A program made the translations under genes and the position numbers. The notes under the pieces were generated by a model. The model saw nothing but the letters and a program-made list of their open reading frames with translations. It was not told where the DNA came from and did no database searches. From Amoebophrya sp. A120 (lineage: Eukaryota; Protista; Dinoflagellata): 64,000 nucleotides of DNA. This document shows, one piece after another, positions 378 to 57,900 of the stretch (position 1 is its first letter; the number at the start of each line of letters is the position of its first letter). The stretch spans positions 11,697,105 through 11,761,104 of the forward strand of contig CAJINV010000003.1 of assembly GCA_905178155.1 (NCBI GenBank), in the 5' to 3' direction.

Positions 378-2034
378 CCGTCCGTCCCCTGCACCAGGAG
401 TCCGCAACACTGCTCCACCTTTTCCAAGTCACACTTCTCGAGCACCGCTGCCCCGTATGCATTGCAAATAATATGTGGTCTGAGTCGGGGAAGAGTCTGA
501 GTAGAGCTTGTGATGCTAGGTCTGGTCGACACAAAAATTTGTCTTGCATAAAGCAGGATAAGTAAACAAGCATTATTGAGAAGCTCGAGAAGAAGCAGTG
601 CTCATACTTTACAACTTGTGATGCTACTAGTGCGACTTACGGTTGTTCGACAAATAATTCCACACCTTCCGGCTCAGCAATCAACATGCAGAAGCAGTAT
701 CACAAACCTCCGCAATGTTCCAGTAGCCCAGAGCCAGATCGAAGCTATTTGCGTTTCATACCTCTTGGAACAGGTCGATGCACCGAGTTTCCGGGTCGTA
801 GATGAGCGCGCCGTTGACGCGCGGCAGACTTTTCGCGTCGTAGTCGCCAATCGACCGGGTGGGCTGCAGTCCGCCCAGCCGCCCGTTGTGTGGCGGCCCG
901 TATGAACTGCAAATATGTCTGGGTCTGGAAAAAAGCAGCGCTTGTCATGCACATTTTGCATGAGCCATAACGTCTGTGATGCATGCCCTAGTATCACAGA
1001 TTTGTTGAGGGCTTTGTGATGCCTGTACTGCATGAGAGATGCCCGCTTCTCCGTGTAGCAAAAAGTGGGCCTCTTTTGCTGGTCACGCAATAGAAATTCG
1101 GTGTAGAATCCAAAGGCAGCATCACAAGTTGCAACCTTCCAGACCCAGACATATTTGCATTTGATAGCCCGTCGATGTCTGCGATCCCAGACCGCTCCAT
1201 CCGCACGCGCTCGGCCGGGCACCGGCAGGACTTATGAAGTGTAAAAATGTCTGGGTCTGGAAGAATGCAACTTGTGATGCGCATTTCAGAACACACAAAA
1301 ATCTCTCATGCATAGGTAGCAAAAGCTGCTCACTTTCTGTCACCAAAAGGGGGGATTTGTCATGCGGGTTCGGCATTGCGGAAGCTTCTCGAAACCTGTG
1401 ATGCTAGAGCTTCCATGACGGACCTTCTGTGTCATGCAGAAACAGCATGACTCTTCCAGACCCAGACATTTTTACAGTTGATAGGACTGCTCCAGGGACA
1501 AGTGATTCAGGCGGCCGAGCCGCAACTTCTTCCGGTTCCCCCGCGCCCGCGTGGAGGTGCAGTCACTCACGGGCACGTACTTGGCGTCGCAGTCCCCGAC
1601 CTGGGCGCAATACATGTAGCGGCCCCAGCACAGCACCGCGTTCATGCAGGTGCCGGACGAAATTTTTTCTTGCCACAGCGTGAATTCGCACTGCTCGGCG
1701 GCTTTCTTCATGGCCTCGGCCGGCTTGCTGGCACGTGTTCGAAAGTCGTGCAAGACCAAGTTCGGGAAGAATTCGGCCACCGTGGTCGCGGCCTGCGCGC
1801 CGTCGTGGCCGTCACAGACGCCCGAGATGAAGAGGTCGATCCTTTTTTCGTCCCCTACCGCATTGAAAGAGCCGCGAGTTGAAAAAATACGGTCTTCGTT
1901 TCCCCGGTGCGGCGGATGCACCATGTCCTCTCGTTTCTTCCCGGCCGCTGCTTTGTCGTTGGCACCGCTGTTTGACGTTTTCTTCTTTCCTTCGTCATCA
2001 GATTCGCTATCGTCGCTGTGCTCCTTATCGTTGT
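378..2034 (-). CDS. Protein phosphatase 2C (PPM family), multi-exon, ends uncertain
   Basis: Motifs GVCDGHDG, SSGTC and CAQVGDC in ORF 1472-2083. Removing elements 1233-1483, 901-1166 and 456-760 gives the continuous frame LSLEQSCRCPAERVRMERSG...GRLGGLQPTRSIGD...LIYDPE...LLVQGTDG, i.e. the remaining PP2C motifs. Confidence 0.88.
456..760. mobile_element. Degenerate family A introner-like element
   Basis: Ends tatgcattgcaaata... and ...tttgcgtttcata. Flanks ccccg/cctct (decayed DR). Removal joins LFQE to AAVLEK in frame. Confidence 0.65.
901..1166. mobile_element. Family A introner (TIR about 30 bp, 5-bp DR gcccg)
   Basis: tatgaactgcaaatatgtctgggtctggaa ... ttccagacccagacatatttgcatttgata. 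DR at 896-900 and 1167-1171. Removal gives DIDG-PPHNGRLGG. Confidence 0.92.
1233..1483. mobile_element. Family A introner (DR ggact)
   Basis: Family A TIR pair. DR at 1228-1232 and 1484-1488. Removal gives LEQS-CRCPAER. Confidence 0.92.
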
Positions 2035-2625
2035 ATGCATTGCAAAAGAAAAAGTATCGTTTATACTTTAATACGAAAATCAAAATGAATTGCCTCGTCC
2101 CAAAGTAGGTCTCACAGAAGGAAAACTCAACCTTCTCCTCATGCAGGCTCAGGTAGAAAAGCAGACCTTTGAATCATTGTCAACAAGCGGGACTACAATT
2201 TCTTGTGCGAGATGAACGCTATTTTGTACTTTTGCCCAGGATACGTCCCCCGCAGAATCGTCCGGCAAAGGCGGCAGATCGCGCCGCTTCTGGGTGAACT
2301 TGCGGCACAAGTACAAAAAATTCATATTCTCGCCCTCGCGTGCCAGTTGATGCATTGCAAACGCATCTGGGTGTCGCTCTGGAACTCAGTGCAGCAGACA
2401 CAGAAGTTTATTCTCAACATGCCAGATTATTTCTATGCCTCACGAAAACAAGAATACAGGGATCACAAGTTCTGCCAGGCCTTGGCAATGTTCGTTCTCA
2501 ATGAGGAGGAGGAGGACACCTCTATAGTCAGCTTCTAACTACTAAGCTACTCTCTCTTTAAGCTAACCATAGGACATGTTTCTGAGGACGACTAGCCGAG
2601 CTGGAGATAGAGTTGTAAATGGTGG

Positions 2626-2723
2626 ACAAATAGCCCTGCCAGGTGTACTAAACCTAGGACTTCAGTGCCACCCGTGAACAAATAGCCCTGCTAGGTGTAC
2701 AAAACCTAGGACTTCAGTGCCAC
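2626..2723. repeat. Direct repeat, 2 x 46 bp, period 52
   Basis: acaaatagccctgc(c/t)aggtgtac(t/a)aaacctaggacttcagtgccac at 2626 and 2678. Confidence 0.85.
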
Positions 2724-4049
2724 GCTGTCTTCTTTTCTCCGCTCAAGGCCCGTCCCCGAGTCTGTACTGCGATCACCCCACTCGATCCAGCTGCTGCATG
2801 CTCAGTGGCTCTCTGGACCTGTTTATATCTGGACGCTTTTACCGGAGAGTTTTGGACTTGTGGCGCTGGAGCGACAACCGGTTGGTGACCTAAGGCCCGT
2901 ACCCGGAGTGCCCAGACGCCACACCTGTTCGACGAGAGGATGTGAGCCACTGCGCGAGGACGTAGTAATGAGGGGCAACCGCAACAGAGTTACCTGTAGG
3001 CTGAAGCCCGCAGCGAGGGTTCGTCGATCCCCCCGCTGTTGTGGTGAACGAGTACAAAGAGTTCTACCTGCGCCCGGCCGGGGCCATCGGCATAGGTTGC
3101 ACTTGGTTTTGCAACCAGCAAGAGTGTTTTCCGGTTTATTTTCCTCTCAGGACACGAAGTACTCATAACGAAACTACGAAAGAACAGATGTGGCGCCTCC
3201 CCCGGACAGACGCAGGAGCCGCTCCCCTAGTAGAAGTCTTACGCGGGCTGCGTCTGCCACGACCTGCTTTGTGTTTTGGGTGCTGCGCTTCCGTGTAGTA
3301 CTTCTTTCTAAATTTTTTTTTCTTGCGCTCTATTTTTACGCGACGGGACCTAGAAATTTTGAGTGGGCATCAACTGTACTCTTCTTTGCGATTTTTGTCC
3401 TTTTCTTCTTTGACGATGGTGCCCGTATTTGGCGTCTTCGTACTTTTCGGTGTGGAAACTCAGACGGAAAACTTCTCTGTGTGTTCGTACTCCTGCTGCG
3501 GCCATCCCGGATGCCGTGCGTCACCAGTGTGATTGGGAATGCGTAGTTCCGCTCCTCCCGCACCAACACCCTACGCACCCCGCTCGCGTGACGCACTTTC
3601 TCCTTCCTGCTCGCTGCTATGTTGGAGCTTTTTACTGAGGTGTATCTGTTTCGTTTTTTGTTTTTATATTTTTATTTCTTCGGTGTGAACATGAACTGCT
3701 ATGGTGTGAAAGATGTTTGCGCGTGTCCTGAATGACTGATCATAACTGAAAGAAACCTACTGGGAGGAGTACTACTGGAAGACTACACGTACATAAAATA
3801 TCTAGCGCGATCAAGTGACTATACTACTCCGTACTCTTTACTTCGGTCCGGGAAACCTGCGCATCTTTGCGAACTTCGGTGGGGAAGTACCTTCCCCGAC
3901 TGCCCCAACACCGGGGTGCTTCTTCGTCTGCTGCAAGTCGCTCCGAGTTTCGTAGTTCTGTGTCGCCTTTTTCGCCAGACCGGCAAACCGTCGCACATTT
4001 TCTGGTTGCACTTGTTGCGGGCGCGCCCGCCTTGATTCACCTCCTCCTC

Positions 4050-7000
4050 CTAGACCATGTCCACCCACGGCACTAGCTTCACTAGCGCCGTGTCATTCGG
4101 CACGACCGAGTCCAATTTCAACTGCTCCCTTTCTTCTTTCGGCTGCTCCGATGTGTCCCGCTGCGCGTTCTCCTGGATCGCTTTGCGTAGCGATTCTGGT
4201 AGTATGCCCGGTCGGTTTTCAGATGTCATGTCAAGATAGGTCAGTATTTTGCGTGTCATTTGAGTGCTTTTTAGAATTTCGCATCGCTGTTTCATACTTG
4301 TTATTTTTGGCAGGCCGAAGCATTTCTCTCTTGCTTCTACAAAATCTGCTTGCTGGCATTCATACAAAAGGTGGTCGGTCGTTGGCAGAACTTTCTTGTC
4401 ACAGTATGGGCATTTCATGCCTGTTAGATGTGGCCTCCTTGTGTTGTGTTCGAGCTTTCCCATTCCTAGGAATCCTTTTTTCCCTGTCCCCATCCATAAT
4501 GCAAACATAATAGTATCTAGATACTGCGGACGTTTTTCTTCTGTTTTGTATTCCCGCATGCAAAATGCTCGTCGCTTCAAGTATGGGTGACATTTTGTGC
4601 TGCCTAGAAACTTGTTTTTCGTTCTTTCCTGTACTAGCCGGCGGAGCAGGTTCACTGTTGTGTCCTTTTTGTAGAAGGGCCTCTGTAGTTCTTTTCCCTT
4701 GTTGTGGTCTAAGCCTCTTGTAGCCATCGCGTCTGCAAAATCATTATAGTAGTTCGCCAGATGTGAGGGCGTCCACCTAAAGATGAACTCACACCCTGGC
4801 GCGGAAACTTTTTCTAGCTCTTCTAGCTCTCGCACGAGCTTGATGATCATGATATTACTCCGGTCCCGGAAAGCCTTCACTGCCTGCAGGAGCCCGTTGT
4901 TGTCAATGAAGAAGACGTGCTTGGTTATTGTCTTCAGCCACTGCGGATCTGAGTGGGCCCGTAACGTTTTGATGTGGTTCAGCAGGCCGTAGCACTCCCC
5001 GTCAAACGAGTCCGGGTCAGTCGTCTCCTCTGGATCACCTATTTCTGACTCAATGCAGCAACAACTTACCACGATCGGCGCAGGGCGTCGCCCCTGCTGT
5101 GCAGTGCAGTGCCAAGAGGCACCGCCCCCGCTCCCTCGTTCGAACTTTGCTCCCCCGTCTGTGTACGACACCACGGTCCGCTTCTCGCGCAATAGGGAGC
5201 GCGTTACCTGTTCGTTCATTTGCGAGATATGTAGCCTTACCTTATCCTTCTCCTCACGATCTCCCAGCCTGCCGGGATCTGCTACATCGAAGTCTGCGGC
5301 GACCTGACGCATCGGCAGCACCGTGATCCTGTTCACACCCCTCCAGTACTGCCGCCCTACCTGTAAACTTTTTGCTGCTTGTGCTAAGTCACGATATTCC
5401 TCACTCAGTGCTATTCTATTCATTCTGCATGACCAGGCTTCGTTGCACCGCCCCCAGAGCGGGTTTTCGTGTGTTGTAGTTGCGCATATCGGGTCCTCCA
5501 AGTCCCACGTTGCAAAAATGTCTGGAAGCTCGTCCGGCTCGATCTCGCTCTCCTCCTGTGTCTGGGGAGCAACGTGCTGCCCCTCGCCTGCTGCTGCGAC
5601 CACTGGAGCGGATTCCGACTCGGGGGGGACAGGGGGAAACGCTTCGGCGTCCCGTGACATTTCCGGCGATGGCCGCGCGGGCGGAATGTCCGCCTCGTCT
5701 AGGTAGAAGGGCCACAAGTCCAGAGCGGCGCCTTTGTAAAACACCATTAGAGCGTCCGTCAGAATGTTGTCGATTGGGCTCGCGAGGCCCGTGGCGCTGT
5801 ACATCAGGAAGTTGCTGCAGTTCCGCGGGATATTCAGGCGCTGTTTTATCTGAGATGCAAATGTCTTTGCTACTTCTTTCTTTGCTGAAGTCGTGAAAAA
5901 AGGAAACGGCACGACTGAGATCGACGTGATCGCAGGGAATGCAAATGCGTTCATGAGCATTATCTTTTGCTTGATGCTTTGTCCTCGTTCTGACTGCAAA
6001 AAGCGGAACTCATGCATAATTTTCTTTTGAACTTCGTCCGCGTGCGAGCGGAAGGTGTATGCTCCGTCGTAGATGCAGCCCAGGCTCTTCCCCTTTCCCG
6101 CTCTGGATTTTTGGTTCGGCTTGCTGCTATCGTACTCGATCTGCTTGTGTTTGAGCTCGTCAAAAAATATCTTCTTCGTGAGGCCGATCTTTTTCATCAT
6201 GCTGGGCACCTGCTCACCTTCAGGCGTGTTTTTGGCGACGACCGTGATATCGTCCGAGTACGCACTGAGTACGCGTATTGCTTGCAGTTCGAGCACCTCC
6301 ATGATCAAGTCGATCGTGTATCCGTTCCATACAGACCCGGAAAGCGGAGAGCCCTGCGGTTTGCCGACCCACAGAGCGTACTCCTTCCCTCCCGGTAGTT
6401 TTATTTTTCTCCACTTCATGAAGCCAGCAATTGCCGCACATTGTTGTGCTGGGCAAACCTTGGCCTTCAGTGCTCCTAAAGTCTCCACGTGGCAGACGAT
6501 ATCAAAACCAGAACAACAGTCATTCAGAACTACCTTACAGCTTACCTCCCCAAAAATCCCATCCACAATCACCGCCGTGGAGAATTCCTTCCCATGTGCT
6601 TGCCGATATGCGTTGCTGAAAGCCGGCTGAACCTTCGGGCCAAGACCCTTGTACTCCGAGCCCTCCCACCGGTGGCCATCCAGCCAAAGGCTCTGGCGCC
6701 TGTCATAAATATTGTCTAAGATCTTGCTATACACACTGCACAGTGATACGGGACGCATTAACATTTCCGTGTAGCAGCCTCCTGCCACTTTCGGCACTGC
6801 GGCCATCGAGATCAAGCGTCCTTGAGCCGGATATGATGCATGATAGACGTATGCTTCAAAACATTGAAAGAGAGCCCAGCGTAGAAGCGGCCCCGCATTT
6901 CGCACCATCTCATGCGTGGTGAGACAGTGGCCGGGGGTGCGCCCCGGTTGCAGTTTCCTTATTGCCGCCTCTACTTCCAAGAAACTCAACGGCCAGGCGC

Positions 7001-9524
7001 TGCCGCCATCTTTCTCCGCCTTCTCCTTCAAGTAGTCCTGCTCTGCTACCGTCCAGGCCCGTTCTACCTCGTCCTTGGATGCGGGCCGTGTTTCGAACTC
7101 TTCGTATACCTTGAATGGTTTACTTCTGAAAAAGTTTTTTATTATTCGACAGATTTCGGAGGGGACTCGCGTGGCCTCCTCCTCTGTGGGCACGTCGTTC
7201 ACCTTCTTGGCCTTCAAAATCTTGTTCGCTTCGTCCAAGGACTTGGCCTCGATGCCTGTAGTGCGAAGTAGATATTTCCGGCGAGACTCGAAGTCCCCCC
7301 GCACCATGACTTTCGGAAACCCCGTCGACCACCGGTTCGCACCCTTCCGCTCCTTAACCCCCTGCCAATCCAGGTCCTTCACGACGGCGGCCACCTCCTC
7401 GTCGACCGCAGGCGCAGGTGCAGTGGGGGGGGCTTTCCCCGCGGGCCGTTTGTTTGTGCCTGTTTTACTCTCTACGTTCTTGCCTGCTTTCTTGCCCTTT
7501 TTCCTGCCTATGTACTTCAGAGTTTCCAGGGCCGCGCCATGTATTGCATGCCTAATTTTTGTCAGGCATTCGTCTGCCTTTGCTGTGCTCATCTGCCTAT
7601 TTGGCTGCCAGTCCTCAGGTCTTCGCAGACCTTCTGTCCAATAGTCCATGCCTGTACCAGCGCCCGCATCACACATCTTTTCTGGCATCACAAAAAGTTC
7701 TTTTACTTTCTTATCAGCTTCTTCTGCATATGCCTTCCACTGTTCTTCTGTGGTTTCTTCAAACAAATACTTTACTCGTTCTTCCTGCTCAAACTCTAGG
7801 GGGGCGCTGAATTCCCAGTCACAGAGCTCCAGAAAGTTGTCCTTCAGCCGCAGCGTGGAGGATAACATATCATGGTCGCTCGCATTCATCTTGTGCACTG
7901 CTGTATTCTCGCTACTGAAAAATCTAGACTCAAACATAATCATGTCCGGCGATGTGAAGGAGCCGTTCTCGTGTCGGGTGGGCAGGCGTTGCACGTTGGC
8001 CTGCTGCCAGTTCCCATCGTGCTCCTCGCTCGGCCCCAGTAGGCTCGCGACCTTTGTACCTGCTGCATTTGAAGTAAAGTTTAAATTTGAACCTGTGGGC
8101 TCCCAATCCCGGTGCCGCGCGTTCAAGTCACCCATGACTATAATAGGCAACGCCATCTCTGGGTGAAGCGGAAGAGAGGACGAGGAGAAGTTGGCTGGGG
8201 GGCTGTACACCCCTCCGACCATTACTGGGTGGCCTAGCAGCCTTGCTGTTGTTACTATTTGCTCGTCGTTGTTGATGGACTCGCACATTCCGATCTCAGG
8301 CAGCCCTAGCTCCTCTCCTAGCAGCAGCATCGAGCTCTTCACATTCGTTGCGGCATCGGTAGGACAGAGGACGACGTGGAAGCCGCGCCGGCGTGCCTTC
8401 TCGATCAGCCTGCTCTTGTCACCGGCAAGGCTGGCCACGTGCGTCTCGCTGAGGTGGATGATACGGATGTGAGGATGCTGGTCCAGGAACAGCATCAACT
8501 CGTCAGTTGCAGTTAGAAGGCGGGCGGCCTCCTCCCTGGTGAGGTTGCCCTGCTTGTTCTTGTTCAAGGTGTGCGCGCTCTGCATGTTCCAGGTGGCGAC
8601 CCCTATCGTGTCGTAGATGGGCGGGCGGCTGCTCTTCGCCTTTGCGACTATGTACTTCGTCGCTTTGCCGGCATATCTTTCTGCGTCTATGTGCTTCTGC
8701 ATCTCGTCTGACGTTGCCCCGTTCTCATGCATGTATTTTATGTGCGATATCCGGTCTATTACTTCTGCACTACATTCAGGGCACTGTGTCGGCACGTTTG
8801 CCGACTTCCCTTGTCGGGCCGCTGTGCTTCTGCAAACTTCTGCATGCGCTAAAACTTCCTTCTCGCAATCTGAGTTCATGACCTTGCAAACCCCACAAAC
8901 AAACTTACCATCATTCGCCGACCTGTGCATTCGGTTTTTATGTATTATTTCACTTATTCTATAGTCACGCTCCCCTTCCTCGTCCTTGAAGTCGAAATCA
9001 AAAACATTACCTGCTATTACTCTACCCACCTCGTCCTTCTTATCGTTCCATTTGTTACAAAATTCTAAGTGGTGCGCGTGCTTGTCCGGATCTCGGGACG
9101 TGTTTCCACATCCGCATATGTACACCCTCTTCTGCGATTTCACCTTGCTGTACGACTCCAGGGCCTTGTCCACGCGCGCCTTGACCTTTTGGCGCTTCAG
9201 GTCGTTGCTTGGCAGAAACCTTGCGGCCACTGCCCCGTCAGGTGCTGGCGCCGCCTCCATCGGAACCTCCTTGCAAATCACCACTGGCCTCGGTATTCCT
9301 CCCACCTCCTCCAGAAACTCGCCGATCTCTGCCGGGCGCGCAGCCCATTGCGCGCCTTGGGGCTCCTGCTGTACCCCTCCTGTTGTGGATCTCCCCCTAC
9401 TCAAAGGTGAGACAGGATCGACACGCACAACCCCGGAGGAGCAGGATACTGCCCCCCCCTGTGTTCTTTGTTTTTTCATTATGCCTACTTCGGCTGCCAA
9501 AAATCTACATACTAAATTCATCAT
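4050..9524 (-). mobile_element. Non-LTR retrotransposon (LINE, I/ingi-like) single ORF, 1824 aa
   Basis: N-terminal Cys/His fingers. APE motifs TWNMQS, LSETH, VYSPP, GDLNA, SDH. RT motifs RPVSL, GKPQGSPLS, AYSDDI. RNase H motifs YTDGG, FIDN, WTPSH, NDFADAMA. C-terminal CPYC...HLLYEC. Element boundaries and TSD not identified. Confidence 0.95.
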
Positions 9525-11699
9525 TTTCTCTTCTTCAGCATTTCAATTCAGTAGTGTCAGTCAGAATAGGGCGCAGGTTGGTGCAGTGGTAGTGGTCAGT
9601 GTTTAGTCAGTCCACTGCACGCCTGAACTGTTTCCCTTGTCACGCCTCTCAACTTCTCAGTTCGTTCTCGGCCCCGGTTCGTAGCCAGTTTGGCTTCTTT
9701 CACGCCGTGTACCCCCGCAAACTGCGCGTCGTTCCTTTTCTCCGGTTTCTCCTTCCCGTCAACGCTGTACCGACCGCCCCTGCACCGCGGAGAGTCTCCT
9801 TCGCCACCACGTTCAGACGCCGTCCCCGACCGCCCCCGCACCGTGGCTAGCCTCTTTCTCCACCACGTTCGTCTGCCTCTTGGAGGAGGAGATTTGATCT
9901 CAACTCCTTCGCCCCACTACCAGGGGGGATCTCCGTTCCCGGTTCCTCCTCGCTGCTGCTGGAGGAGATTCCCACTCTGCCTCCCTTCGTAGCTACCTGA
10001 AGAAAGTTTTTAGTTTTTACGTGGAGGCTCTGTTGCTTTGTATCCTGCTAAGAAAAACTTATCATTCCATTACTGAGTGCGTTTTTCGGCTCTTACCGCG
10101 CCCACACTACATACACCAGAAGCAATATGAAGTAACATTGTGCCCTTTTGCGCTTACACCGCTGGCATCTCATACAGCAAAAGAGATATTTTGTACTTTA
10201 TTTGCTTCTTTCCCGAGGTCGCTATCCTGCTCCTTCCATTTTGTTTTGTTTGCCACTTCATTCTTTTCTTACTAGGGGGCCGGAATTTTTGTTCTGTACT
10301 TCTAACTCTAGTGCTTGCGCTAACTTTACTCGTCGCTGTTGGTAAAAGAAAATTGAAACGGAGGGCAAAGAATCCGTAATTATGTTCTACTCTGTTCCTG
10401 GCCCTAGATAACTACGTATGGGTCCTGCCGTTCGCCCGCAACACGACAGCTGCCCCGGTTTTCCCCCTACGACCCACCCTACCCAATCTGTGTGGGGGAG
10501 CTCGCCCATGCATCTTTGTTTGCGAGCCACTGACCTTCTTTCTCGGTGTGCGCGTGCTTGTCAGTGCTCATCCTAGGGAGTCGCATGAGCAATTCTTTTG
10601 AGCTGGGGCTGCCCTTGTGCTCTTGGGCGGTTTTAGTTCTGCGTAGAGTCGCGCACACTGTTACTCATGACCTTCTATCTGCCCCGGCGAGGTTCACCTC
10701 CCCCAGCTGTGGGATTCTGCGGCGGCTGCGACAGGCGAGATCGTAGGAGCGTATGCAGTTCCGTATGCAGTGGGCTTTGCCTCTTCGTCCACGATAAAAC
10801 GCGTAAAAGTATCTGATTCCGCTCACGCCTCTTCTTTGGCGTCGGGCTCGGTGCACGTCTGGCCGGTCCGACTGCTGTCGTGCTGCGACCGCTTCCTCGG
10901 TCCCGGTATATTCTTTATTAGTTATGTCCTGGTCGCGCTAGATAGATTTATTTCGAAAGCCGCATTTTGATCCTGTTATGATTATCTTACCTGTTTTCGA
11001 TCAAGGAAGGACGACCAGTATGCGATGCCATCTTGTTTCTTTCTTTCCCCACGCCGTTTTTTCGCCGCCGCAAAAAGGATCGGATCCAGCCCACGCTGGG
11101 CACACAAAAAAGATCTTCTCACTTGATCCTGCCACTCTTGTGGTGCTTCTTCTACTTCTCGCCGTTGCCAAACAGACCAGTTTTTCAGATAAAACTGACA
11201 AAAAACTTTGGCTAGAAGCAGACTGCCCTTCGCTGTACTGCTACCCCTAGACCTTAGCCCTTTCTCTATTCGCATCATTCTTTGCGTAACTACAAGCAAG
11301 AGCTTCTCACTTGCGCATTTGTTGCAGTGTCTTGTAAAAGTCGTACCATCGCGACTTAGCTACAAACATAAATTCGAGAACATGTACAAGATTCACAAAA
11401 TTGGTAGTATGCTGTTCGCAGGGCTGCGCAAGCACAAGTAGTAAAAGAGATCTAGAGAGCTCTCAGTTTGAATAACGACAGAAAGCAGGATAAAACACAT
11501 CCAATGACAATTTGGGTTCGAATCTCAACAAGAGCGATTGCGATAGGGAAACGCCCGAAATAGCGTGTAGCAAATTTGCGCAACCGCGGACCACGAGGGC
11601 GAAAGGCCGTCGCAGCGAGCCTTGCTAGTCCGTCACCGAAGTTTGCGGCACGCAACAAGCCCGCCGCCGGTACTAAGGCGTAGACTGACAACGAAAAGG

Positions 11700-12830
11700 A
11701 GAGGCAACGAACCAACCGCGCACCCCCGGCCCTCGCCCCAGCCAAGAAAAAAGCGGTCGGCGCGGGGCTGCCTGGGGCCGATTTGTGGCGGGCCGGCGTT
11801 GCTTTGGCTGGCCGAGCCCATTCATTGGGGCGCCGGGCCGCCAAGGTAAGAAGGCGGGCCGGCGCGCGGGGCGGGCAGGAAGACCGGCCGGCCTGGGTCC
11901 CTCCACCCAGAGTAAAGGGGGCCCTGCCTGGAAACCGCGCGCGGGCCCACCTGGGAAACAGGGCGCCGGGCGAGTCTCGCCGGCCGCGCGCGCCACCGGC
12001 CCCTTTCGGCAACAAGGCTCCCGGGGCCTTGGCGCCGCGATTGCGGGGAGAACGAAGGCAGGAGGGCGCACCCGCAGAAACAAATGGCGGCGCTGATGCG
12101 AGAGACGGGCCCCTCCGGTCCGCATATCTCTGCCGCTTCCGCCGGCGCGCCTCGGTCGTGTTCGAGCGGCAACGCGATGGCCACCTCCGGCCCCGCTTCA
12201 TCCTCGCGCGCCCTTCTGTCCGAGGGGCCGCCGAGGTAGGGCCGCCTGCGGCCTTCCAAGGGGGCCAGGACCTGTAGGAGCGGTAGGGCGCCGCCGGCCC
12301 CGGGGCGGTGCGCCGCGCGGGGCCGGCCCGGCCCGGCCCATCGCAGAAGGGCGCGCGCGCCGCGCGCAACCAATGTTCCAGCCCTACGGCGCCAGCAGGG
12401 GGGCCGGGCCCGCGGGCCCGCCCACACTTGCCAGCAGCAGCGGAGCGGGGGGATTCGGGCGGGCCCGCCTGGAGCTCTCGGGCTGGGCCCTGCCCGATTT
12501 CTTGTTTCCTGCCCTCCCCATCCCCGCTAGAGTCGCAAATGCCCCGCGCGCCCTGCCCCCTCGCTTTCCTGGAAGCTCCCGCGGTCTTGTTTGATCTGCA
12601 TCGGCAACCAGATCACGCGCCGCATATCAGGCGGGCACTCCGCTCCCGGCGTCCGCGCCGGGCCGCTCTATCGCGTCGGCTAAATAGATCACCAAGAGGG
12701 GGGGCAGGCGTGGGCCCGGCCCCGGCCTCGCCAACACCACGGCGCCGCGCGCGTCCAGGATCTGGCCCGGCTCAAAATCTGGCAGGCGAACTCGAGGCGC
12801 GCCCCCCTTGGCTACAGGCTCTGCATCGGG
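11700..12830. other. Very GC-rich tract of unknown nature (possible decayed insertion)
   Basis: Abrupt GC shift. Long ORFs in several frames encode only Arg/Pro/Gly/Ala-rich low-complexity sequence. Confidence 0.35.
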
Positions 12831-13111
12831 GCGGGGTGCGAAGCGTTTTCGAACCACCATCGACGTCCGCCATCCACTACCCTGCTGCGCTCCTTCGTGC
12901 AGACCCGACTACCTCCAGACAAGTCTGGAAGGCAAACTGAGCCTTGAGCCTTCGTTCTCAATGAGGAATCAATTTTCATCGTGGCCAAGAATTATAACCA
13001 AGCATTTCTTGCAGCTCCTCATGCAAAACAGATTTTATTCCTGGTTCACCCGCATCACAAGTTCGCACTCAATTATTGCCAGACTACCCAGACATGGTTC
13101 CAATGCGTATA

Positions 13112-14143
13112 GGTCTCCTGCGCGCAGTTTCCCGAGCTTCTTGTCCCACAGAAAAAGACAGCAGGTAGCGCATATTTGTAAAAATGGAAAAAAGATGAAC
13201 ACACAGAAAAACAAAAATCTGCACTGCGGATCCGAATAAACTTAAACAGCGTGCGATGGGCTCGCCCATGCTAGATTTTTTGTTATTTATTTTTTGCATT
13301 TATAGGAATGTGCCCTGCCTACTTTTTTCTGTATGATACTTCACTTCCAGCGCCGTCTTCGGCTCTGTCACGCCTCTATGCATTGCAAATCTTTCTGGGT
13401 CTGGATAAAAGTACGCGATTTGTCATGCTAAGCGGGCTTCTGTTCGGCATAAACGCAACACAAGTTTGTCGGGTCTTATTGCGAATTCCGATTCTTTCGT
13501 GTTTCGCATTGCAACTCCCTTCGTTCCAGTGCGACAAGCACAAGAAAGCTGGCCCACCCTCTTCATGAAATACAGGTGATCTACTTGGCGTCACGTAATT
13601 ATTATACTCACATTCTGCACCACAATTCTTCGGGCCCAGACAGTGTACAACATGTACTTCCAATGCATAGCTCCCGGCTAGAGGATTCTCAGTCTCGTCC
13701 ACTTCGATGCTCCGAAACTCTTTGACATCTACCCGGCACTTCCGCTTTTTCAACACCGGCTCCTTATTTAGTACCGCTGGCAGTTTGTTCGAGTTGGCCA
13801 GGTCGAGGGCCTTCAGCGCTGCGGCCGTCAACGGGAGTCCGTGCGAGGCGGGCTTGGGCTGGTCGGCCCGCTCTGGCTTGGGCTTGATTTTGTTCGCCTC
13901 GCTCTTGTGCGCCTCGCTCAAACGCTTGTTTGCAGCTGCAAACGCGTCCCGGTCGAAGGGGGCGATCGGCGGCTTAGCGAGGATCGGCGGCTTAGCGATC
14001 AGCGGCTTAGCGATCGGCAGCTTAGCGATCGGCGGCTTAGTAATCGTCAGGCCGAACGGGTTACTGCTCATGTTCTGACTTGCGGGACCTTGCGGCAGAG
14101 GCCGAAGCCGCTTGGCAGCGGGGGTCGGGTTGTCTTCGGGCAT
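13112..14143 (-). CDS. Hypothetical protein, 5' exons (AKPPI repeats), 3' end unresolved
   Basis: ORF from MPEDNPT. Removing 13377-13669 and 13142-13338 continues the frame LAGS-VTEPKTALEVK-LGKLRAGD. A 15-bp coding repeat lies at about 13962-14045. Confidence 0.6.
13142..13338. mobile_element. Family D introner, degenerate (DR cttct/cttca)
   Basis: Ends tgtcccacagaaaaagacagcagg ... ccctgcctacttttttctgtatgata, homologous to 24275-24445. Confidence 0.7.
13377..13669. mobile_element. Family A introner, degenerate
   Basis: Left end tatgcattgcaaatctttctgggtctgg, right end cccagac...caatgcata. Removal keeps the frame. Confidence 0.7.
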
Positions 14144-15883
14144 TCTACTTGCTCACTCTACTCATAGCCTTTTCTACTGTGATTTGATTTCCCGAGACTG
14201 ATGAATGAGCGGAAATCTCAGATAGAAGTCTTTGTCTTTCAGAGATTTACTTCCTTTCTTCTACTTCTTCATCTTCGCCACAAAACGAATTTGCTGCCAG
14301 AAGTAGTGGAGATCTTCGTAGTTTTATCAGGAGCTCCTCCTGCCACGACCTATTACAAGTACTAGTACGTCCTTCTGCAGTTGTAAATCTACTTGGATGG
14401 AAATATACATGTTTTTACCAAAAGTGTCAGATGACTTGACGCAAATCTTTCAGTTCTTGGCCGAGGAGCCTGGTTGAAGACCTGAACCAACATCGTAGTC
14501 ATGAACTTCTACTTCGTCCTGCTCGCGCGCAAGTTTATTTTCAATAAGTAGTAAAGTTGATACATTGTGATGAAGTACTTCATGCGTCCAGCTCCAGCCG
14601 TTCACCCAGAGACGCGAAACATCTCAGGATCTTCGCCTTGTTGACCTCGAGCTGAAGAGGATTCGCTGAGAACGGTCAGTGCCGTCAGGATGTTGTACAG
14701 AAGGAAGCCAATTCAACAGCAGCTCAAAACTGGTGTATCGTGCTCGTTCTGTTGTTACCTTGTCTTGTGTACAACCAAAATGAAAATCTAAATCTTACAA
14801 CCAAATGGTCAGAAGAGACCCGGACGTTCTGTAATAACGTAGCCTACGTGGATCTCGGCCGGCGGTCAAGAAACATTGACTCCGGAAGGTGGAAAAGTGG
14901 AAATTGAAAATGTTCACACGCCGCAGATTTTTCGTGATAAGTCGCGAAAAATAGAACAATGCCAAGGAATTTTCATTTCCGCCTCTTTTTCTGCGAAGAC
15001 AAGCACGAAACAGGAGCCTAAACTTGGTGAAACACCAGCAGCACGACCAATATTTTTGTTCAGGTTTTTTTTTCATCTTTAAAAAAATCGTGAGAGGTCG
15101 AAAGTTCCATGTGCTGTTGAAAATGTTTACGTAAGATGCGAGTCCAAGCAACAATCACAGCTGCGCTGCAGGAAACAGCTGTACAGTAGAGACCAGCTTG
15201 TTGTTGTTTCCTGATTGAGTTTATTTTCAAACACACTAAGAAATCCTAAAAAATTTTTGTAAATTTTCAGTTCATCTACTACACCTCGACGTTTACAAAA
15301 AGTTGCTTCTAAGAACTTTTACAAACTTGTCGTAGTCTGGGTTATTTTGTGCTACCGCTACGACCACTGTCGTCCGTGCGAATACTAAAACAAAAACGAG
15401 GCGCATTTTTATACCATGACAAACATTTTTGGTTGTTGCTTCTACTTCGGTGGAAAAACTACCGGAGAAAGCCACCGACTCTGTTTCGCAAACGAGTGTT
15501 GGTCATCGATCTTATTTATTCCAGCCCTTCGTCTACTAGCGGGAAAAGATCCATGCAGAAGAAACGCAAAAAGTGGCAGTGTCGTCCACCATTTTGATTC
15601 GTGTACATCATCTAAAACTAGTAGATCTAACCCACCAATATCATGAAACATCAATATTGATTGCTCCATGGACCACCTGTTGTACCTTGGCTCTAGTTGT
15701 ACTTTTATACACTTTGCGCGGCGGCTTCGAATCAACGTAGCTGAGGTTGACGTGACCGCAGCTGCTAGTTTGTGGTTACAACCAAAGTCGGCATTTGATG
15801 CATTCGTGAGTATTACTAAGTACATTTGTCAACATTGTCTCCGATGTTCTTGCAGATGCAGAACTACACTTCTTATGTGTAGT

Positions 15884-18800: not shown

Positions 18801-20598
18801 TTTTGCCCTGCACAAGTAGCAGCCAAACATGATTTCGAATTCCCGAACTTGCCGCTCTTTTTCCAGTATCGCTAGAAAGAACTGTCCACCTCCCAGTCTT
18901 CATCTGTATTGCGGAAACAGCTTGTTAAAGCTTTCTGTCATGCTCAACATGCAAGATGAGTACTACTAACGCATGGCGTTTTTACACGTGTTTATGTTCT
19001 TTTCCCAACAACTTGCTTTTGTTCATGACGCATCCGAGATTTGTTTCTTCTACCATATCGAATCGAAGGGAGCTGTGTTTGCTGAATGTCCAAAATTAAG
19101 GTTCTAAACCCGCCCCTGACACTAGGTCGTGTTGACAGCTTTTTTTTTTTGCATACCCCGTTCGCACTCCGCGATTCGTTGAAACACGTACCTGATTACC
19201 TTCACGTGATCCGCAGTTTGCACCCAGAGCAAATCCTTCAACGACGCGCCGTTGTTTAGCATGTCCGCGCACGGCAGCACCCGGCTCACTTCGTGGTCCA
19301 CAAAGGAGACTGCGAGACTGTAGGACTCCGTGACCGCGGTCAGGTAGTCCTGGTTCTTTTCCGCCTGCTTCAGGGCCACCCGCGCCTGGTCCCGCTCGCC
19401 CTCGGTGAGCCAGTCCGCGTAGCCCGGTTTGGGATCCACCAACTCGATCTGGTCGTCCTATGGATTGCAAAAATGTCTGGGTCTGGAAGAGTCATGCTAC
19501 TTTTGCATGACACAGAAGGTCTGGCATGGAAGCTCTAGCATCACAAGTTTCGAGAAGCGTTCGCAATGCCGAAGCCGCATGACAAATCCCTGACTCTGGT
19601 GACAGAAAGTGAGCAACTTGAACTTTTGCTGCCTATGCATGAGAGATTTTTTTCTGTTCTGAAATGCGCATCACAAGTTTGTATTCTTCCAGACCCAGAC
19701 ATTTTTGCATTTGATATTTCCAGGGACTGCACGATGTCCACCAGCCCGCGGCCGAAAAACAGTGGGCATCCTGTGCAAAAGTATCGTACTCGTACAAGTG
19801 CAAGTCTTGCATTACAAATTTTGTTTCCAAGGGCAAGGCAAATCTGCATTATTTTATTTCTATGCTGAGGAAATTTGTAATGCATTGATACGAGTACGAT
19901 ACTTTTGCACAGGATAGCGGGTCTTCCTGCTCCAGTTGCTCCTGCTCCTCGTCCTCGTTCGCCTTGCCCAAGTGCTCCTCCAGTATCAAAAGGAAAAATC
20001 CCCCCTCCCCATATCGAAAACGAAATTTGTGATGCTGTATTTGAGTACACAAATCGACTTGTAATGCTAGAAGGCCAAGAGACGCAGCTGTGGCCTCGTC
20101 TACAGGCAATTTGTCATGCTGTTTCCCACTTCCAGCTGCCCCCTGTAATGCTGAAGATGCAAGGCTTATCCACGCCAACCAGCACTACAGTCCGCATCTT
20201 TTCCCTTCTAGCATGACAAAGCTGATAGATTTGTGACCACAAATCTGCATCACAAACCTCTATTTTGAGCATGGGGTGGGGGGATTTTTCACTTTGATAT
20301 CCAGCATGCTCTCCGCCATGCGGAACACCCGGTCCAGCCCGTGCTGCGGCCAGGGCGACTGCCAAAAGTGCCGGTTCCGGGTTTCTTCCGCCGCCTGCAG
20401 AAACCGCTGCGCCAACAGAAACGGGATCGCCTCCCGCAACCGCCGTCGGGGTTGCAGCCGCCCGCTGTCCCGCAAGGCGCGCTGCGCGAGGTGGATCCTT
20501 TTCCGGAAGTCGTTTAAGCACGAGTTCACGGCATCGCACGAAAAAACTCTTTCAGCACTCTCAAACCTGTCATGCTCCTGTCGCAGCATACTATACAA
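15884..20598 (-). CDS. Hypothetical multi-exon protein (possibly more than one gene)
   Basis: In-frame joins across elements: ESML-EEHLG, EDP-LFFGRG, QSLE-NQIELVDPK, SLDD-YMGGGGSGG. Links 19150 to 18440 and 16750 to 16460 were not resolved. No domain recognised. Confidence 0.55.
16812..18024. mobile_element. Family B introner carrying a nested MITE
   Basis: Left end tattgcaaggaaaaatccccc, right end ggggggattgttcatttcgata. DR taatc/tcatc. Removal restores the frame. Confidence 0.8.
16959..17812. mobile_element. Non-autonomous TIR element (MITE), 854 bp, TSD tttgt
   Basis: TIR of about 65 bp: ttagggcggaaaaatcggcaaatatcatcattt... / ...aaatgatgatatttgccgatttttccgccctaa. tttgt at 16954-16958 and 17813-17817. 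Confidence 0.9.
19459..19716. mobile_element. Family A introner, inverted relative to 1233-1483
   Basis: Interior is the reverse complement of 1233-1483 and 21897-22136. DR cgtcc/tttcc. Removal in frame. Confidence 0.88.
19767..19916. mobile_element. Family E introner (150 bp)
   Basis: atcctgtgcaaaagtatcgtactcgta ... tacgagtacgatacttttgcacaggata. DR gtggg/gcggg. In-frame join. A decayed relative starts at about 18652. Confidence 0.88.
19984..20299. mobile_element. Family B introner (DR tccag)
   Basis: tatcaaaaggaaaaatcccccctcccc ... ggggtggggggatttttcactttgata. Perfect DR. In-frame join. Confidence 0.92.
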
Positions 20599-24269: not shown

Positions 24270-24274
24270 CTTAT

Positions 24275-47110: not shown

Positions 47111-47166
47111 GCATAGGAGAAGACAATTTGAGAAATCAACGGAACCATCCTATCCACTAGTACTCT

Positions 47167-50145: not shown

Positions 50146-52483
50146 TCATAATTTAGATTTCTGCCTCTTGGTCCCAGTATCATTCACCACTTCGGGCATT
50201 TTCAACACAAGTTTCAAACTCCTCGGCACCGCGTTTTCCTCACCCGCAGGGTCGTCACAATTCTCTCCGAATTCCGTGATTTCGTCCCAATACTGATGGA
50301 TCTCCTTCCAGTCCACGGGCTTCTGCCGCACCTGCTCCGTCCCCAATTCCGGAAAGTACACCCCTCCACTTCTTTGAAATTTGATCTCCGCGTAGAACCC
50401 CGGCCCCGCTTCAAAAATGCGACCGGTGATTCCGTCGGAGGCGGAGCAGAGGAGGTAGGTCACGAGGGGTGCGATGTGCCCCGGGTCCGCGCCGGACGTG
50501 TAGTGCTGCAGCCCGACCGTTTTGGTCATCGCGGTGAGGGCGGTGGGAATGATCACATTAACGTGGATATTTTGCTTCTTGCCCTCCTTCGCGAGTGATT
50601 TGGAGAAGCCCAGGATCGCCGTTTTCATACCTAGAAGAAAGCAATCTTTTTCGATCCTTCGCAGAGCATGAACTCATCTTGCGCAGTTCGGGCTGCGCCT
50701 TCTGACACACGGAACTAATACTTGCAGCATTGTTATTCATCAGACAGGGATAACTTGATTTAAATTCGCATCGAGATCTGTTGACCCCTCCGAATAGAGG
50801 TGTCAGAACTCAAGGTTGGTCATCACGCTTGATAGTTTTCCGGGCTCCTGCTACCCATGAATAGACGAAAGGGACTAAAACTCAGACAGGGATAACTTGA
50901 TTTAGATTCACATCGAAGTTTGCTCGTGACAAACCTCTTTGAATAGAGGTGTCAGAACTCAAGGTTGGTCATCACGCTTGCGAGCAGCTGCTAAAGACTC
51001 TACGCCTACTGTAAAACTAAAACTCAGACAGGGATAACTTGATTTAGATTCACATCGAAGTTTGTGCTCTTGACAAACCTCTTTGAATAGAGGTGTCAGA
51101 ACTCAAGGTTGGTCATCACGCTTGCGCGAGCTGCTAAAGACTCTACGCCTACTGTAAAACTAAAACTCAGACAGGGATAACTTGATTTAGATTCACATCG
51201 AAGTTTGCTCTTGACAAACTTCTTTGAATAGAGGTGTCAGAACTCAAGATTGGTCATCATAGCGGGTGTCCCGGATCTTCTACTGTAGCATTTGGATCCT
51301 AATGCGTCACGCGCGTTTTGCATGTAGTCAGACCGTCGTAGTCTTTAGCTTTTCTGTTTTCACTCACGGTTTCCGAGAGGAAATCAGAGGATTGACAGAT
51401 TTTAGAAAAAGTTGTGTCATCATGGCAAAGGAGTCGTGCGTTCTTCATTTCGATCTTTAGAACTGGTTGGCCGAGTACACCTGTACTCGCGAACGAGCAG
51501 CATTCTTTCGCAAAATCATACGTATGTCTCAGTTTTTAGGTCTCCAACGCCTCCTTTTGGAAAGAGTCTCGGAAAAGATTAAGCCTTAGAAGGTTGTAAT
51601 CATGTTGGACTAAAGATCTCTGCAGGACTCAATTTTTTTCAATTTACCGGATCAGAAGGTACTTACCGCCGATCAGATCCGAAAGGCCGTTTGCTTCAGT
51701 GAATTTCAGGCGGCATGAGCAGTGCTTTATGATCGTTATGTTCGCCCTTCACAAGTGCAGTTAATGAAAGTGAAACAAAATAATCGAAATCGATATACTG
51801 GCATAATTCGTCTGGCCGTAGGCTCCACAGATCCCGTTCATGGAGCTGACGTTCACGATCTTGCCTCGCTTTTGCTCGAGAAACAGCGGCCAGCACTTCT
51901 TGCACAAATTTCGCACGCCGAGCAGGTGTAAATCGTAGATCTGCCTCCACTGCTCGTCGCTCTGGTTTTTGAACGCTACGTCCCGAAGGATGCGGTTTGA
52001 AGAGAAAAAAGCCGGAGTTTCTCTTGCGGAGAGTTGCCGTTTTGTTGGAAAAGTCGCGCTTCGCGCAACTTGTTGTGTTCGAGTAATCACAGTGATGTCA
52101 TGCAAAACGATTTGAATCTAAAGGCGGCAACTCCACCGCCTTTCGTCTCCACTACGTCTTTGTTCTGATACCCCAGCATTGTTCACCAATCCGGTCGGCG
52201 GCCCTCCCAGATATCGCATACAGTCTTCCACTATCTTCGCTGCGCCATCTGGTGCACCACCGCTTTCCGGTGCGATGCTGCTGGTGTTCACGCCAACTTT
52301 CGTTTTCGGACTGAGAATCCTGATCTCCGACGCCACTGCCTCGGCATTCTTCCCATTGATGTCATTTACCAGAAGTCCACCCACGCCGGCATTGGCGAGG
52401 TCCAGGCAATAGGCGCGGCCAAGACCGGCGCCCGCCCCGGTCACGATAACCCGGGCGGTGGACAGGTCGGAGGGAGGATGCAT
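50146..52483 (-). CDS. Short-chain dehydrogenase, peroxisomal MFE-2/HSD17B4 dehydrogenase-like, three exons
   Basis: VIVTGAGAGLGRAY, LVNNAG + ILRD...KIVNVSS..GICGAYGQTNYAS + MKTAILGFSKSLAKEG (YxxxK is split across intron 2). The C-terminus is SKL, a PTS1 signal. Confidence 0.92.
50740..50826 (-). ncRNA. Box C/D snoRNA copy 1 (snR38/SNORD1-like guide)
   Basis: GTGATGA (box C) ... TTCTGACACCTCTA ... AGTTATCCCTGT-CTGA (box D). Both guides are antisense to conserved LSU rRNA. Confidence 0.85.
50882..50975 (-). ncRNA. Box C/D snoRNA copy 2
   Basis: Same C box, guides and D box, with an internal stem between the putative D' and C'. Confidence 0.85.
51024..51119 (-). ncRNA. Box C/D snoRNA copy 3
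   Basis: Same boxes and guides. Tandem period 142-143 bp. Confidence 0.85.
51167..51260 (-). ncRNA. Box C/D snoRNA copy 4
   Basis: ATGATGA ... guides ... CTGA. Confidence 0.85.
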
Positions 52484-54917: not shown

Positions 54918-57900
54918 TCAGAAGTGTTTCTTTTTGTTCGTGCTCTTCTCGTAGCCTTTACTCTCCCGCGACCTCCGTCTCTTCCCACCGCCCTCCCCGC
55001 GCGACTCGGGTCTTAGTCGTGCCTGCAAAATCTCGAATTCCTCTCGCCGGTTCGCCTCGAAGGACTCGATGTAGGGTGTGTTCCCCGTTCCCATCAGCGA
55101 TCCGGACGTTTTCTGCGACAGCAACGCGGACTGCGATCCATCTTCCTTCTTTTTCTTCTTCTGCGCGCTTTGCTCCTGCTCACCCGGAGTAGTCCCGGCG
55201 AGCGCTCCTTCCAGCTGTTGTCCCTGGTTTACTTCCCGGTTTTGTTGGCTCTTTGAACTCGGGGGACGGAGTTTTTCTAGTTCTTCCTCTCTCTTCCGCT
55301 TTATCTCCTCCTGCTCTTCGTAGTAAACTCCGTGGTCGATGTCGAGTAAGTCCATGACGTCGCAGCCGAAGCAGTTTGCCAACGTCACGAACGTGTCCAG
55401 AATCCCGATCGGGGACAGCGTATGCACTACAAAAATGTTTGGGTCTGGAAGTCTACAAGTTTGTCTTGCTTGGCTAGCATGACTCTTAAGTCTGTCATGC
55501 ACGTTACCCAAAAGCCACAGCTTTCAGACATGCAAAAACGCAGTTTGTCATGCTGGATAGACAACACCTATCAACTCAGTAGAAATTTGTCATGCTCAGC
55601 CGTCATTTGTAGCGTCCTCATGATTCGCCCATCAGCATCACAGGTTTATTCCAGACCCAGACATATTTGCCGTTCATACAGCGTCAACCTTGACAACCCC
55701 CTCACCGGGGTGACGTCGTCCGGCTTCACCCACAGATCCGGAATCCCCGCGGACACGGGGTTCAACCCGATAATCGCCAGCTTCGCAATTTCCGCGATGT
55801 GCTTGCTCCGGCAGAGCAGTTCCACCGGATGCGCACTCGGGTCGTAGATCTGCGCGAATTTCTTCTTGTCAATCAGCAGGCTCCGCAACCGGTCGGTCAG
55901 ATACAGAATGTAAATGTACAACTCCTCCACACCCAGTCTCCCCGCCCCCAACGCGAAGATGTAGCGCGCGGTGTACTGGAAACACCGGTACAGAAACGTT
56001 CTTCTCCGCTTCAGCCGCACGACGTGCAGATAGCCCCGGTTGAACACGTGGCGGGACTTGTGGCACTTGAACACCTCCCTGGCGGATTCGGAGTAGCAGA
56101 AGGAAAGCAAGTTCGATTCCTCGTGGGTGTCGAGGGTGAGTTCGTCCTCTTCCAGCTCCTCCTCCTCGGTTGTACTAGAGGAATGCGTCGCAGTCTGTTG
56201 CTCCTCGCCGCTCGTGGCATTCAGGTTGTCGTCTCCCGAGTTGCTGTTTTGCGCCACCGCGATCGCGACCACAGCGGCGGGAAGCTCAGGCCCATCTTCT
56301 ACCTGGCCGCCTTGCTGTTTCCTGCCTGCTTCTTTTGTTGCGCCGCTTTGGGGGCGACTTGACGTTTTCTTGCCTGCTTGTTCATCTGCTTGTTCTCCCG
56401 CATTTTCTCTCTCCGCCGTGCCCGGTTTCGAATTCTCATTCAGTTGCTCCAAGCCAAAATTGTCCGGAATGTCTTCCCCATCTACCGCCTCCTTGGCCGG
56501 AAATTGACTATTGTCCTGCGCCACCACCGCGACCGTCGCGGCGTTTGGAAACAAACCTCCATTATTACCATTTCGCTCTCTTCTCATTTGCCTTTTCCGG
56601 TCCCGCATGAACCACGGCCCCTCGTCCTCCGATTCGAAAATCCGACTTCTCGCCGGGGCAGCCAACCGGTCCTGTATCCCGAGTAAAAACGTACCCACGC
56701 CAGGGTTGTAATGCAGATTTGCAAAGACAGGAAGACTTGTAATGCGGTCCCCATGAGAGCTATTTCCAATCGTGTTTTGGAATTTGTGATGCTGTGAACA
56801 GGATGAGCAGATGAATCTGTGATGCCGCTGCACTTGCTGACCTGCACTACACTGCGTAGTGCAACTTGTCATGCGTGACTCACAAAACTCCTAGGTTTGT
56901 GTTGCAAAATCACCATCCTAAGTCTGGTGTGGGTACGTTTTTACTCAGGATACCCTGGTACTCGAACTCATCCTCGCTGTCGTCGTCGGGCGGTAGACTG
57001 AACCGCACCCGGTCGACCGGATTTTCCCACCCGTCCGCCGTGTCGACGGAACTGTCGCTGTAGCAACTGCTGTCGTCCTGTAAGATCCTCCTCCTCCGGG
57101 TTTTGCTGGTGACTTGGAACAAGTTCGACTCGTCCGTCTTGTACGCGCGCTGGCACTGCGCGGCGTAAATGTCGGAGATTTCGAATTTCAGCTTCTCCAG
57201 CCGGTTATGCTCCGCCTCCATGCGCTTCGACCCCTGCAGCCGAACCTTGTCGAACCACAGGTCCTTGCCCCGTTTCTCCTCCAATTTTCGCAACGACAGG
57301 CCTCGCAAGTCTCCCTGTCGGTTCTGGTTCTCCTTCAGCTGCTTTTTCCGTTGCAGCGCCGCGGCCGACGACCCCCCGTCCCCTGGACTGTTGCCCGCGT
57401 ACCGCGCGGCTGTCTTCTGCGCGTACTCCCGCCGGTAGTCCAGGCAGTCCTGCAATTCCATTCTTAAATTCACCCGGGAGAAAAGCGGGGCAATGTCTTT
57501 CATCGCGAGAATTGGCTCGGCGGGCAGCTCGGCGGGCGTCAACCTGTACATGTACCGCTTCACGCGGAGCTGCTCGTCGGTGATGGCATCCAGGTCGTCC
57601 TCGTCCCCTCCGTTCCCACCACCGCCGAACGCCACCAGCGCGCCCTCCGCGCCGCTCGCATTGCGGCTCGCGTTGGCGGAGGAAGAGCTCGTGTGGCCGC
57701 GGGGTTTCGGGAAGACGGGGTCGATGAAGTTCCCCTGGCTAGTTACTTCGTAGAAATTCTGTTTGTCGAACCGAAACCGGCCGACCAGGCCGCACACCCC
57801 GTTCCAGTTTGTGTCGGGAACCACCAGGGAGCCCGGAGCGTTGTCGTTCTTTGGCTTATTATTCGCTGACGCGGAAGATGTACCACCACCTCCTGCAGCA

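Follow-up and report, generated by a model that had tools for sequence, protein, structure and literature searches.

We analysed a 64,000-nucleotide (nt) stretch of the genome of Amoebophrya sp. A120, a parasitic marine dinoflagellate (contig CAJINV010000003.1, positions 11,697,105 to 11,761,104), referred to here as the window. Its genes are interrupted by short repeated elements: At least 32 of these start with TAT and end with ATA (or close variants), carry terminal inverted repeats (TIRs) and are flanked by a direct repeat of 5 base pairs (bp). Excision of each element together with 5 nt yields minus-strand frames of 3,930, 1,507, 345 and 328 codons. An earlier note on this DNA had placed all host genes on the minus strand and all joins in frame, and the frames are indeed open for all nine copies that it named. 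The length of element plus 5 nt is mostly not a multiple of three, so retention of an intron would shift the frame. Predicted protein P0001 matches across the join at 1233 and P0003 across the join at 55421, where the homologues P0004 and P0005 align gap-free; a homologue search with the exon at 56955-59075 returned no match.

The elements are already known A120 introners. One exon of the PP2C gene in the window is 100% identical to an Amoebophrya sp. A120 protein, and the text of Farhat et al. 2021 (PMC7789003) describes 29,850 A120 introner copies of ~240 nt with 3-5 nt direct repeats and without GT-AG, whose inverted repeat reads TAT, 7 nt, AAA. This pattern fits both 54 element ends in the window and the 240 elements that we tabulated from related loci. 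We fetched 145 such loci (408 kb; contigs JACKZZ01...) by the terminal-repeat pattern; they hold 330 distinct elements, 209 of them assigned to families, and share the element families of the window at up to 95% identity. As described for A120 introners, the window elements are repeated, absent from RNA and devoid of GT-AG. They also have the features of miniature inverted-repeat transposable elements (MITEs), being short, multicopy and bounded by TIRs and a fixed target duplication, which is a perfect 5 bp in 199 of 240 strong-TIR locus copies (other lengths 0-24). They are small non-coding DNA transposons with TAT...ATA ends and a 5-bp target duplication, strongly conserved at positions 11-14 of both ends. 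A TIR family with open reading frames (ORFs) resembling those of long-terminal-repeat elements has been described from A120 (PMC12130899).

The host gene with the most joints and the introns used below are as follows. For introns that consist of elements, the bounds are drawn 1 nt ahead of TAT and 4 nt past ATA in the sense direction (1+4); joints are those of complementary DNA (cDNA) contigs.

15884-34005, minus strand: host gene, 3,930-codon reconstructed frame in 20 exons, with UvrD-type helicase domains
1229-1484, minus strand: family A1 element 1233-1483 with 4+1 nt of its GGACT duplication, PP2C gene; interiors, frame, P0001
19455-19717, minus strand: family A1 element 19459-19716, opposite to 1233 and 21897, with decayed duplication; cDNA joint 19454>19718
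21893-22137, minus strand: family A1 element 21897-22136, in the same gene as 19459 and opposite to it; contig arithmetic 232=232
22653-22909, minus strand: family A2 element 22657-22908; contig arithmetic
55417-55679, minus strand: family A2 element 55421-55678, opposite to 22657; frame, P0003, gap-free homologues
26592-26850, minus strand: A2-like element 26596-26849, opposite to 22657; interior alignment, frame
20795-21020, minus strand: family D element 20799-21019; cDNA joint 20793>21020
25018-25532, minus strand: family D-like element 25022-25531, opposite to 20799 in the same gene; contig arithmetic 311=311
897-1167, minus strand: A3-like element 901-1166, in opposite orientation to the adjacent 1233 and to 23903; interior alignment, P0001
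23899-24180, minus strand: A3-like element 23903-24179; contig arithmetic
16808-18025, minus strand: family B element 16812-18024 with nested TTA-ended element 16959-17812, oriented as other B copies; cDNA joint 16806>18025
19980-20300, minus strand: family B element 19984-20299; cDNA joint 19978>20300
26112-26456, minus strand: family B-like element 26116-26455; contig piece end at 26110, frame
29246-29571, minus strand: family B element 29250-29570, sense 5' end TAC; frame
16458-16698, minus strand: old decayed element 16462-16697, 6/15 terminal matches, no predicted end pairing; cDNA joint 16457>16699, in register
18863-19156, minus strand: old element 18867-19155, 9/15 terminal matches, no predicted end pairing; cDNA joint 18862>19157, in register
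18648-18815, minus strand: old element 18652-18814, sense 5' end TGT; cDNA joint
19763-19917, minus strand: element 19767-19916, sense 3' end ATG; cDNA joint
20528-20756, minus strand: element 20532-20755, sense 3' end ATG; cDNA joint
13138-13339, minus strand: element 13142-13338, sense 3' end ACA, PP2C gene; cDNA joint
13373-13670, minus strand: element 13377-13669, PP2C gene; cDNA joint
22250-22533, minus strand: family C element 22254-22532; contig arithmetic
24268-24794, minus strand: compound intron, 24275-24445 inserted in the TAT end of older 24448-24793; contig arithmetic 311=311
2345-13110, minus strand: 10.8-kb intron, family A-like element 2349-13109, ends TAC and ATC, with an endonuclease/reverse-transcriptase ORF; P0001 mapping
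56671-56953, minus strand: family C element 56675-56952; P0003 permits 1+4 to 5+0
59076-59264, minus strand: element 59080-59263; P0003 permits 1+4 or 2+3
18426-18602, minus strand: canonical GT-AG intron missing from the same X1 contig; contig joint

The cDNA joints all come from contigs of one run (X1), mostly from a single contig, and fall in minus-strand genes only; that the run represents RNA was a guess. The contig, 5,786 nt long, tracks the helicase-like gene from 14986 to 26110, omitting the elements and one GT-AG intron, and its listed pieces show no mismatches to the window. Because the GT-AG intron is gone as well, the contig reads as spliced RNA of the minus strand. We consider it very improbable that DNA-level excision, comparable to that of the internal eliminated sequences (IESs) of ciliates, or else an element-free allele or a retrocopy explains this contig: The guessed status of the run and the TA-rich element ends, reminiscent of ciliate IESs, would be in keeping with this, whereas the loss of a GT-AG intron from the same contig and the lack of mismatches speak against it. 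Three RNA runs of 2026 (X8-X10) yielded 95, 3 and 1 reads, respectively; almost all of these matched elements in part, and the runs were uninformative on these genes.

Removal is exact, comprising the element plus 5 nt. Among the joints listed there are cDNA joints at 19459, 16812, 19984 and 20799, while removal of 21897 and 22657 (232 = 232 nt) and of 25022 (311 = 311 nt) is given by exact contig arithmetic; at 26116, a contig piece ends at the element edge (26110). At 1233, 29250 and 55421, removal is read from the open frame and, for the first and the last of these, from predicted proteins. Each pair of opposite copies has at most one joint among those listed, with the removal of the partner given by arithmetic. 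In this way both orientations prove to be absent from cDNA: 19459 has a joint and the opposite copy 21897 is removed by arithmetic; likewise 20799 has a joint, and the opposite copy 25022 in the same gene is removed by arithmetic.

The inversions themselves are clear for family A. In whole-element BLAST comparisons, 19459-19716 matches the reverse complement of 1233-1483 at 87% and that of 21897-22136 at 81%, and 55421-55678 matches that of 22657-22908 at 78%, as the earlier note had proposed. With the TIRs removed, the interiors score 284 vs 26, 242 vs 30 and 221 vs 24 for opposite vs same orientation, the last for 55421 and 22657, far above the maximum of 34 in a shuffled null of 300 draws. 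Further opposite pairs in the window are 901/23903, 20799/25022, 22657/26596 and 13142/24275. The inversion that the note had also seen in family B (26116 and 16812 relative to 19984 and 29250) did not survive: It was first taken from BLAST hits, and we dropped it after interior alignment. Whole-element scores favour the same orientation, at 154 vs 50 for 16812/26116, 139 vs 71 for 26116/29250, 124 vs 100 for 19984/26116 (interior 59 vs 24) and 114 vs 82 for 16812/19984 (interior alone nearly even, 23 vs 20). The apparent inversion arose because terminal repeats of ~100 nt give opposite-strand hits. In other loci, family B does lie both ways (B 2:3, B2 5:2).

Counts in the related loci agree with two-way insertion. 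Host strand there was called by a coding model, which was right in 26/26 cases in window cross-validation and concordant in 103/107 cases. Relative to the window reference, 43 copies lie in the same orientation and 47 are flipped (n=90, element-level host calls; the 185 of 330 elements with no element-level strand call and the 121 with no family are outside this count), and with locus-level host calls the split is 80 to 66 (n=146). We found no significant orientation bias in any family across the 145 loci. The sample is skewed to young family A copies, and the element finder, which recovered 22/30 window elements with one extra call, under-samples old ones. Two mild end-specific hints, TATC at the 5' end (49:28, p=0.022) and position 15 (24:8, p=0.007), are uncorrected among ~20 tests and we do not rely on them. 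The central claim of the note, that the same introner is tolerated in both orientations, therefore stands, on the opposite copies missing from the transcript and on the even count in the related loci.

The target duplication usually hides the exact cut, which explains why Farhat et al., studying the same organism and elements, called the splice sites variable (1-5 nt) relative to the hairpin and proposed hairpin joining (PMC7789003). Where the duplication has decayed, the cut becomes visible. Eight of the 11 element joints listed are informative, and the sole register common to them takes 1 nt ahead of TAT and 4 nt beyond ATA on the sense strand, a coincidence with a chance of ~0.004 under uniform registers. 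The joint at 19459 is compatible with 1+4 alone, and five predicted-protein joins (456, 2034, 2349-13109, 56675 and 59080) also permit it. The mirror register 4+1 is excluded by seven of the eight informative joints; a symmetric cut in DNA would give 4+1 as often, which is a further point against DNA-level loss. Independent support comes from Table S4 of PMC7789003, in which 9/9 listed predominant non-canonical intron classes of A120 start N-T.

At the 1+4 register (n=205), 64 introns have G first, 16 have AG last and 7 are GT-AG. In place of the GT (or GC) donor of U2-type introns we thus find an N-T donor that retains U at +2, and the U2-type acceptor AG is confined to the 16/205 introns just mentioned. 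The first base and the last two bases of the intron are free, and we found no splice-site bias in the target duplication across the 145 loci. Nor does either orientation come with canonical sites of its own, GT-AG being found in only 7/205. To judge from the literature searched, a fixed 1+4 register without GT or AG preference is new for Amoebophrya.

The two ends of the intron do not decay alike. In oriented copies the first T is retained at 234/234 5' ends vs 227/234 3' ends (p=0.015), and the third position at 226/234 5' ends vs 232/234 3' ends; both positions combined give a Fisher value of 0.002. The related loci alone show the same polarity (0,7 vs 5,2 changes; Fisher 0.021, strand shuffle 0.006), and element interiors have no matching mutation bias (A>G 172, T>C 158). 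The conserved marks are T at intron +2 and, mostly, A at -7 (kept in 232/234). Natural variants that are spliced in cDNA include a 5' TGT, a 3' ATG (twice) and a 3' ACA, and by the predicted protein a 5' TAC is combined with a 3' ATC in the 10.8-kb PP2C intron. The unequal decay suggests that recognition is not symmetric. It also tracks the host-gene strand, again contrary to what excision from DNA would leave.

We wondered whether the ends are recognized as a folded structure. The earlier note had suggested symmetric recognition through the TIRs or a fold-back; a role for the TIRs holds up, whereas symmetry conflicts with the 1+4 stagger and the polar decay. In a fold-back scheme like that of euglenids, the terminal repeats would pair in the precursor messenger RNA (pre-mRNA) and an enzyme or modified spliceosome would cut 1 nt before and 4 nt after the stem base. 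Such a staggered cut around a stem would likewise be fixed and orientation-free, euglenid nonconventional introns are described as pairing +4..6 with -8..-6 and leaving as circles (PMC11282704, PMC11170887), and in 12/19 cDNA-supported copies the predicted pairing of the 15 terminal positions averages >=0.5. However, 16462 and 18867 are spliced in register at a predicted terminal pair probability of 0-0.01, 19459 is spliced with its last three terminal pairs predicted open, and the 10.8-kb copy retains only 17/30 terminal matches. Sense-strand arm mismatches show no wobble excess that would signal selection for an RNA stem (G.U 262 vs A.C 264), and polar decay favours a C.A mismatch at position 3. 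We therefore regard the fold-back scheme as unlikely; on present evidence folding appears not to be required, and stem pairing may assist by bringing the ends together. Recognition looks polar and motif-based rather than a symmetric fold-back.

The core signals of spliceosomal introns include a U at the second position and a branch adenosine. We think it probable that a relaxed U2-type spliceosome removes the elements, with U at +2 as donor and the 3' cut counted 7 nt from a candidate branch A. The spliceosome would take N|U as donor, branching would occur at the A of the terminal ATA (A(-7)), and the exons would then be joined 7 nt downstream by distance. In either orientation, TAT-N7-AAAA read forward would serve as donor and its complement TTTT-N7-ATA as the 3' mark, and the A-run or U-run 11-15 nt inside the ends would help recruit the spliceosome. 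The spliceosome as agent, A(-7) as branch nucleotide and recruitment by the runs are what we infer from these marks. Since the ends are inverted repeats, both marks are supplied whichever way an element lands, and since the 1+4 nt removed add up to exactly one duplication, the mRNA regains its original sequence whatever the target. The machinery is largely present: PMC7789003 lists 83/89 spliceosomal proteins and U2, U4, U5 and U6 for A120.

Several observations weigh against this reading. The branch at A(-7) is a candidate drawn from sequence, and two well-formed elements in coding sequence (L001:2873-3123 and L056:1398-1669) have the sense 3' end GTA, with G at -7. The polarity counts rest on 17 changed ends and fall short of significance for the third position taken by itself (p=0.11). 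Host strands in the loci were assigned by a model, and the ends of the oldest copies were placed with the joints in view. Many young copies have strong predicted end-to-end stems. We know of no close precedent for a 3' cut without AG, and U1 small nuclear RNA (snRNA) was not found in A120 (PMC7789003). The copies with G at -7 would suit a mixed arrangement, in which the chemistry is spliceosomal and U+2 is the donor, a protein that binds TAT/ATA and the A-run or U-run sets the 3' cut, a stem helps young copies, and A(-7) is a binding site with the branch elsewhere or variable. Register and polarity are compatible with it, as is the strong conservation of positions 11-14 at both ends; it requires an additional factor, and old copies that are still spliced, among them 16462, have a weak U-run. 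We give this arrangement a modest chance of being correct.

Returning to the relaxed spliceosome, its demands can be stated as an intron code, which we propose tentatively as a rule that may well hold: U at +2 plus a branch A at a distance of 7 nt from the 3' cut, neither G nor AG being needed. Inverted repeats with a 5-bp duplication would then make perfect introns at any site and in either orientation if they start TNT and are cut 1+4, as in A120, or start NT and are cut 0+5, which is the prediction for A25 with its TTA-ended elements. According to PMC7789003, A25 elements start TTA and 9/9 listed predominant non-canonical A25 classes start TT; a 0+5 cut at such ends with a 5-bp duplication is predicted to give the same U+2 and A-7.

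Some elements of the window are composite. Element 2349-13109 is a family A-like copy grown to 10,761 nt that forms a single intron of the PP2C gene; inside it lie an endonuclease/reverse-transcriptase ORF of 1,830 codons on the minus strand (4050-9542) and, at 11452-12612, a GC-rich frame of 387 codons. In the same gene, a second contig joint of depth 27.7 (13372-13684) adjoins element 13377; it leaves out 311 nt, has 10 letters between, and may be an allele or alignment variant. The element nested in the family B intron (16959-17812) is 854 nt long, TTAGG-ended (an A25-like motif) and flanked by a 5-bp duplication, and its two overlapping frames of ~200 codons had no Pfam match. At 24268-24794, a younger element sits in the terminal TAT of an older one and its duplication remakes ATA four bases ahead of the exon, so that the pair can leave as one 527-nt intron or in two steps; a 343-nt intron that we had placed at 24.4-24.8 kb failed contig arithmetic (319 vs 311) and was replaced by this compound intron.

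A search of the window for TIR elements with other ends had just two results, the TTA element nested in the family B intron and a cluster of repeats at 41-42 kb. In this cluster (41000-42220), which is unlike the introners, a CATCTTTTCAAA-like unit underlies short repeats, both direct and inverted. A well-formed TAT...ATA element at 40090-40313 is not crossed by a long open frame on either strand, and may lie in an untranslated region or neighbour an unseen intron. A tandem repeat with a period of ~142 nt occupies 50740-51259. From 54918 to 64000, two reconstructed frames belong to one gene, that of predicted protein P0003 (3,947 amino acids), which extends past the window end; as the protein also spans 60.1-62.4 kb, the repeat and N-gap located there have to form an intron of ~2.3 kb in this gene.

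Two-way introners are not new as such. Those of Polarella glacialis (10.1101/2020.10.14.339549) and Aureococcus anophagefferens (PMC10228655) are described as DNA-transposon introns with target duplications in either orientation, as here. Their GT, GC or GA and AG sites come from the element and a constrained target, and the classes described are orientation-biased, whereas in A120 the target has to contribute neither a G nor an AG, and the 43:47 split gives no clear sign of bias. The nonconventional introns of euglenids (PMC11282704, PMC11170887) resemble those of A120 in their transposon-like character, in ends that can pair (by prediction, in many A120 copies), in fixed offsets and in the absence of GT-AG; their accounts report conserved CAG/CTG pairing and circular products, while A120 has spliced copies whose ends are predicted not to pair, and its U+2 never varies. 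In Fritillaria borealis (PMC11282704, PMC13326754), MITE-derived non-canonical introns with an adapted U2 spliceosome are described that keep preferred end dinucleotides (AG-AC, AG-AT), of which A120 elements have none at the 3' end. For Amoebophrya, our literature search, with main-paper figures and subscription papers outside it, returned no report of orientation, fixed register or branch point. The text of PMC7789003 contains none of the three, and its Fig. 3 and S19-S25 may show offsets; two-way insertion, a single register and polar marks are what the present analysis sets beside it. We thus have known elements, an observation that was partly right and a new, testable splicing rule.

The texts of PMC7789003 and PMC11282704 leave open how Amoebophrya, in which no U1 snRNA has been detected, removes tens of thousands of introns that lack GT-AG. 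A fixed register with two polar marks makes sharp predictions: lariats would be branched at -7 and the 3' site chosen by distance, not by AG. The rule also names point changes expected to block or spare splicing, could be used by gene finders on these genomes, and tests how far the step-2 requirements of the spliceosome can relax. It would explain the scale of the invasion, since any target in either orientation would be acceptable with the mRNA exactly restored.

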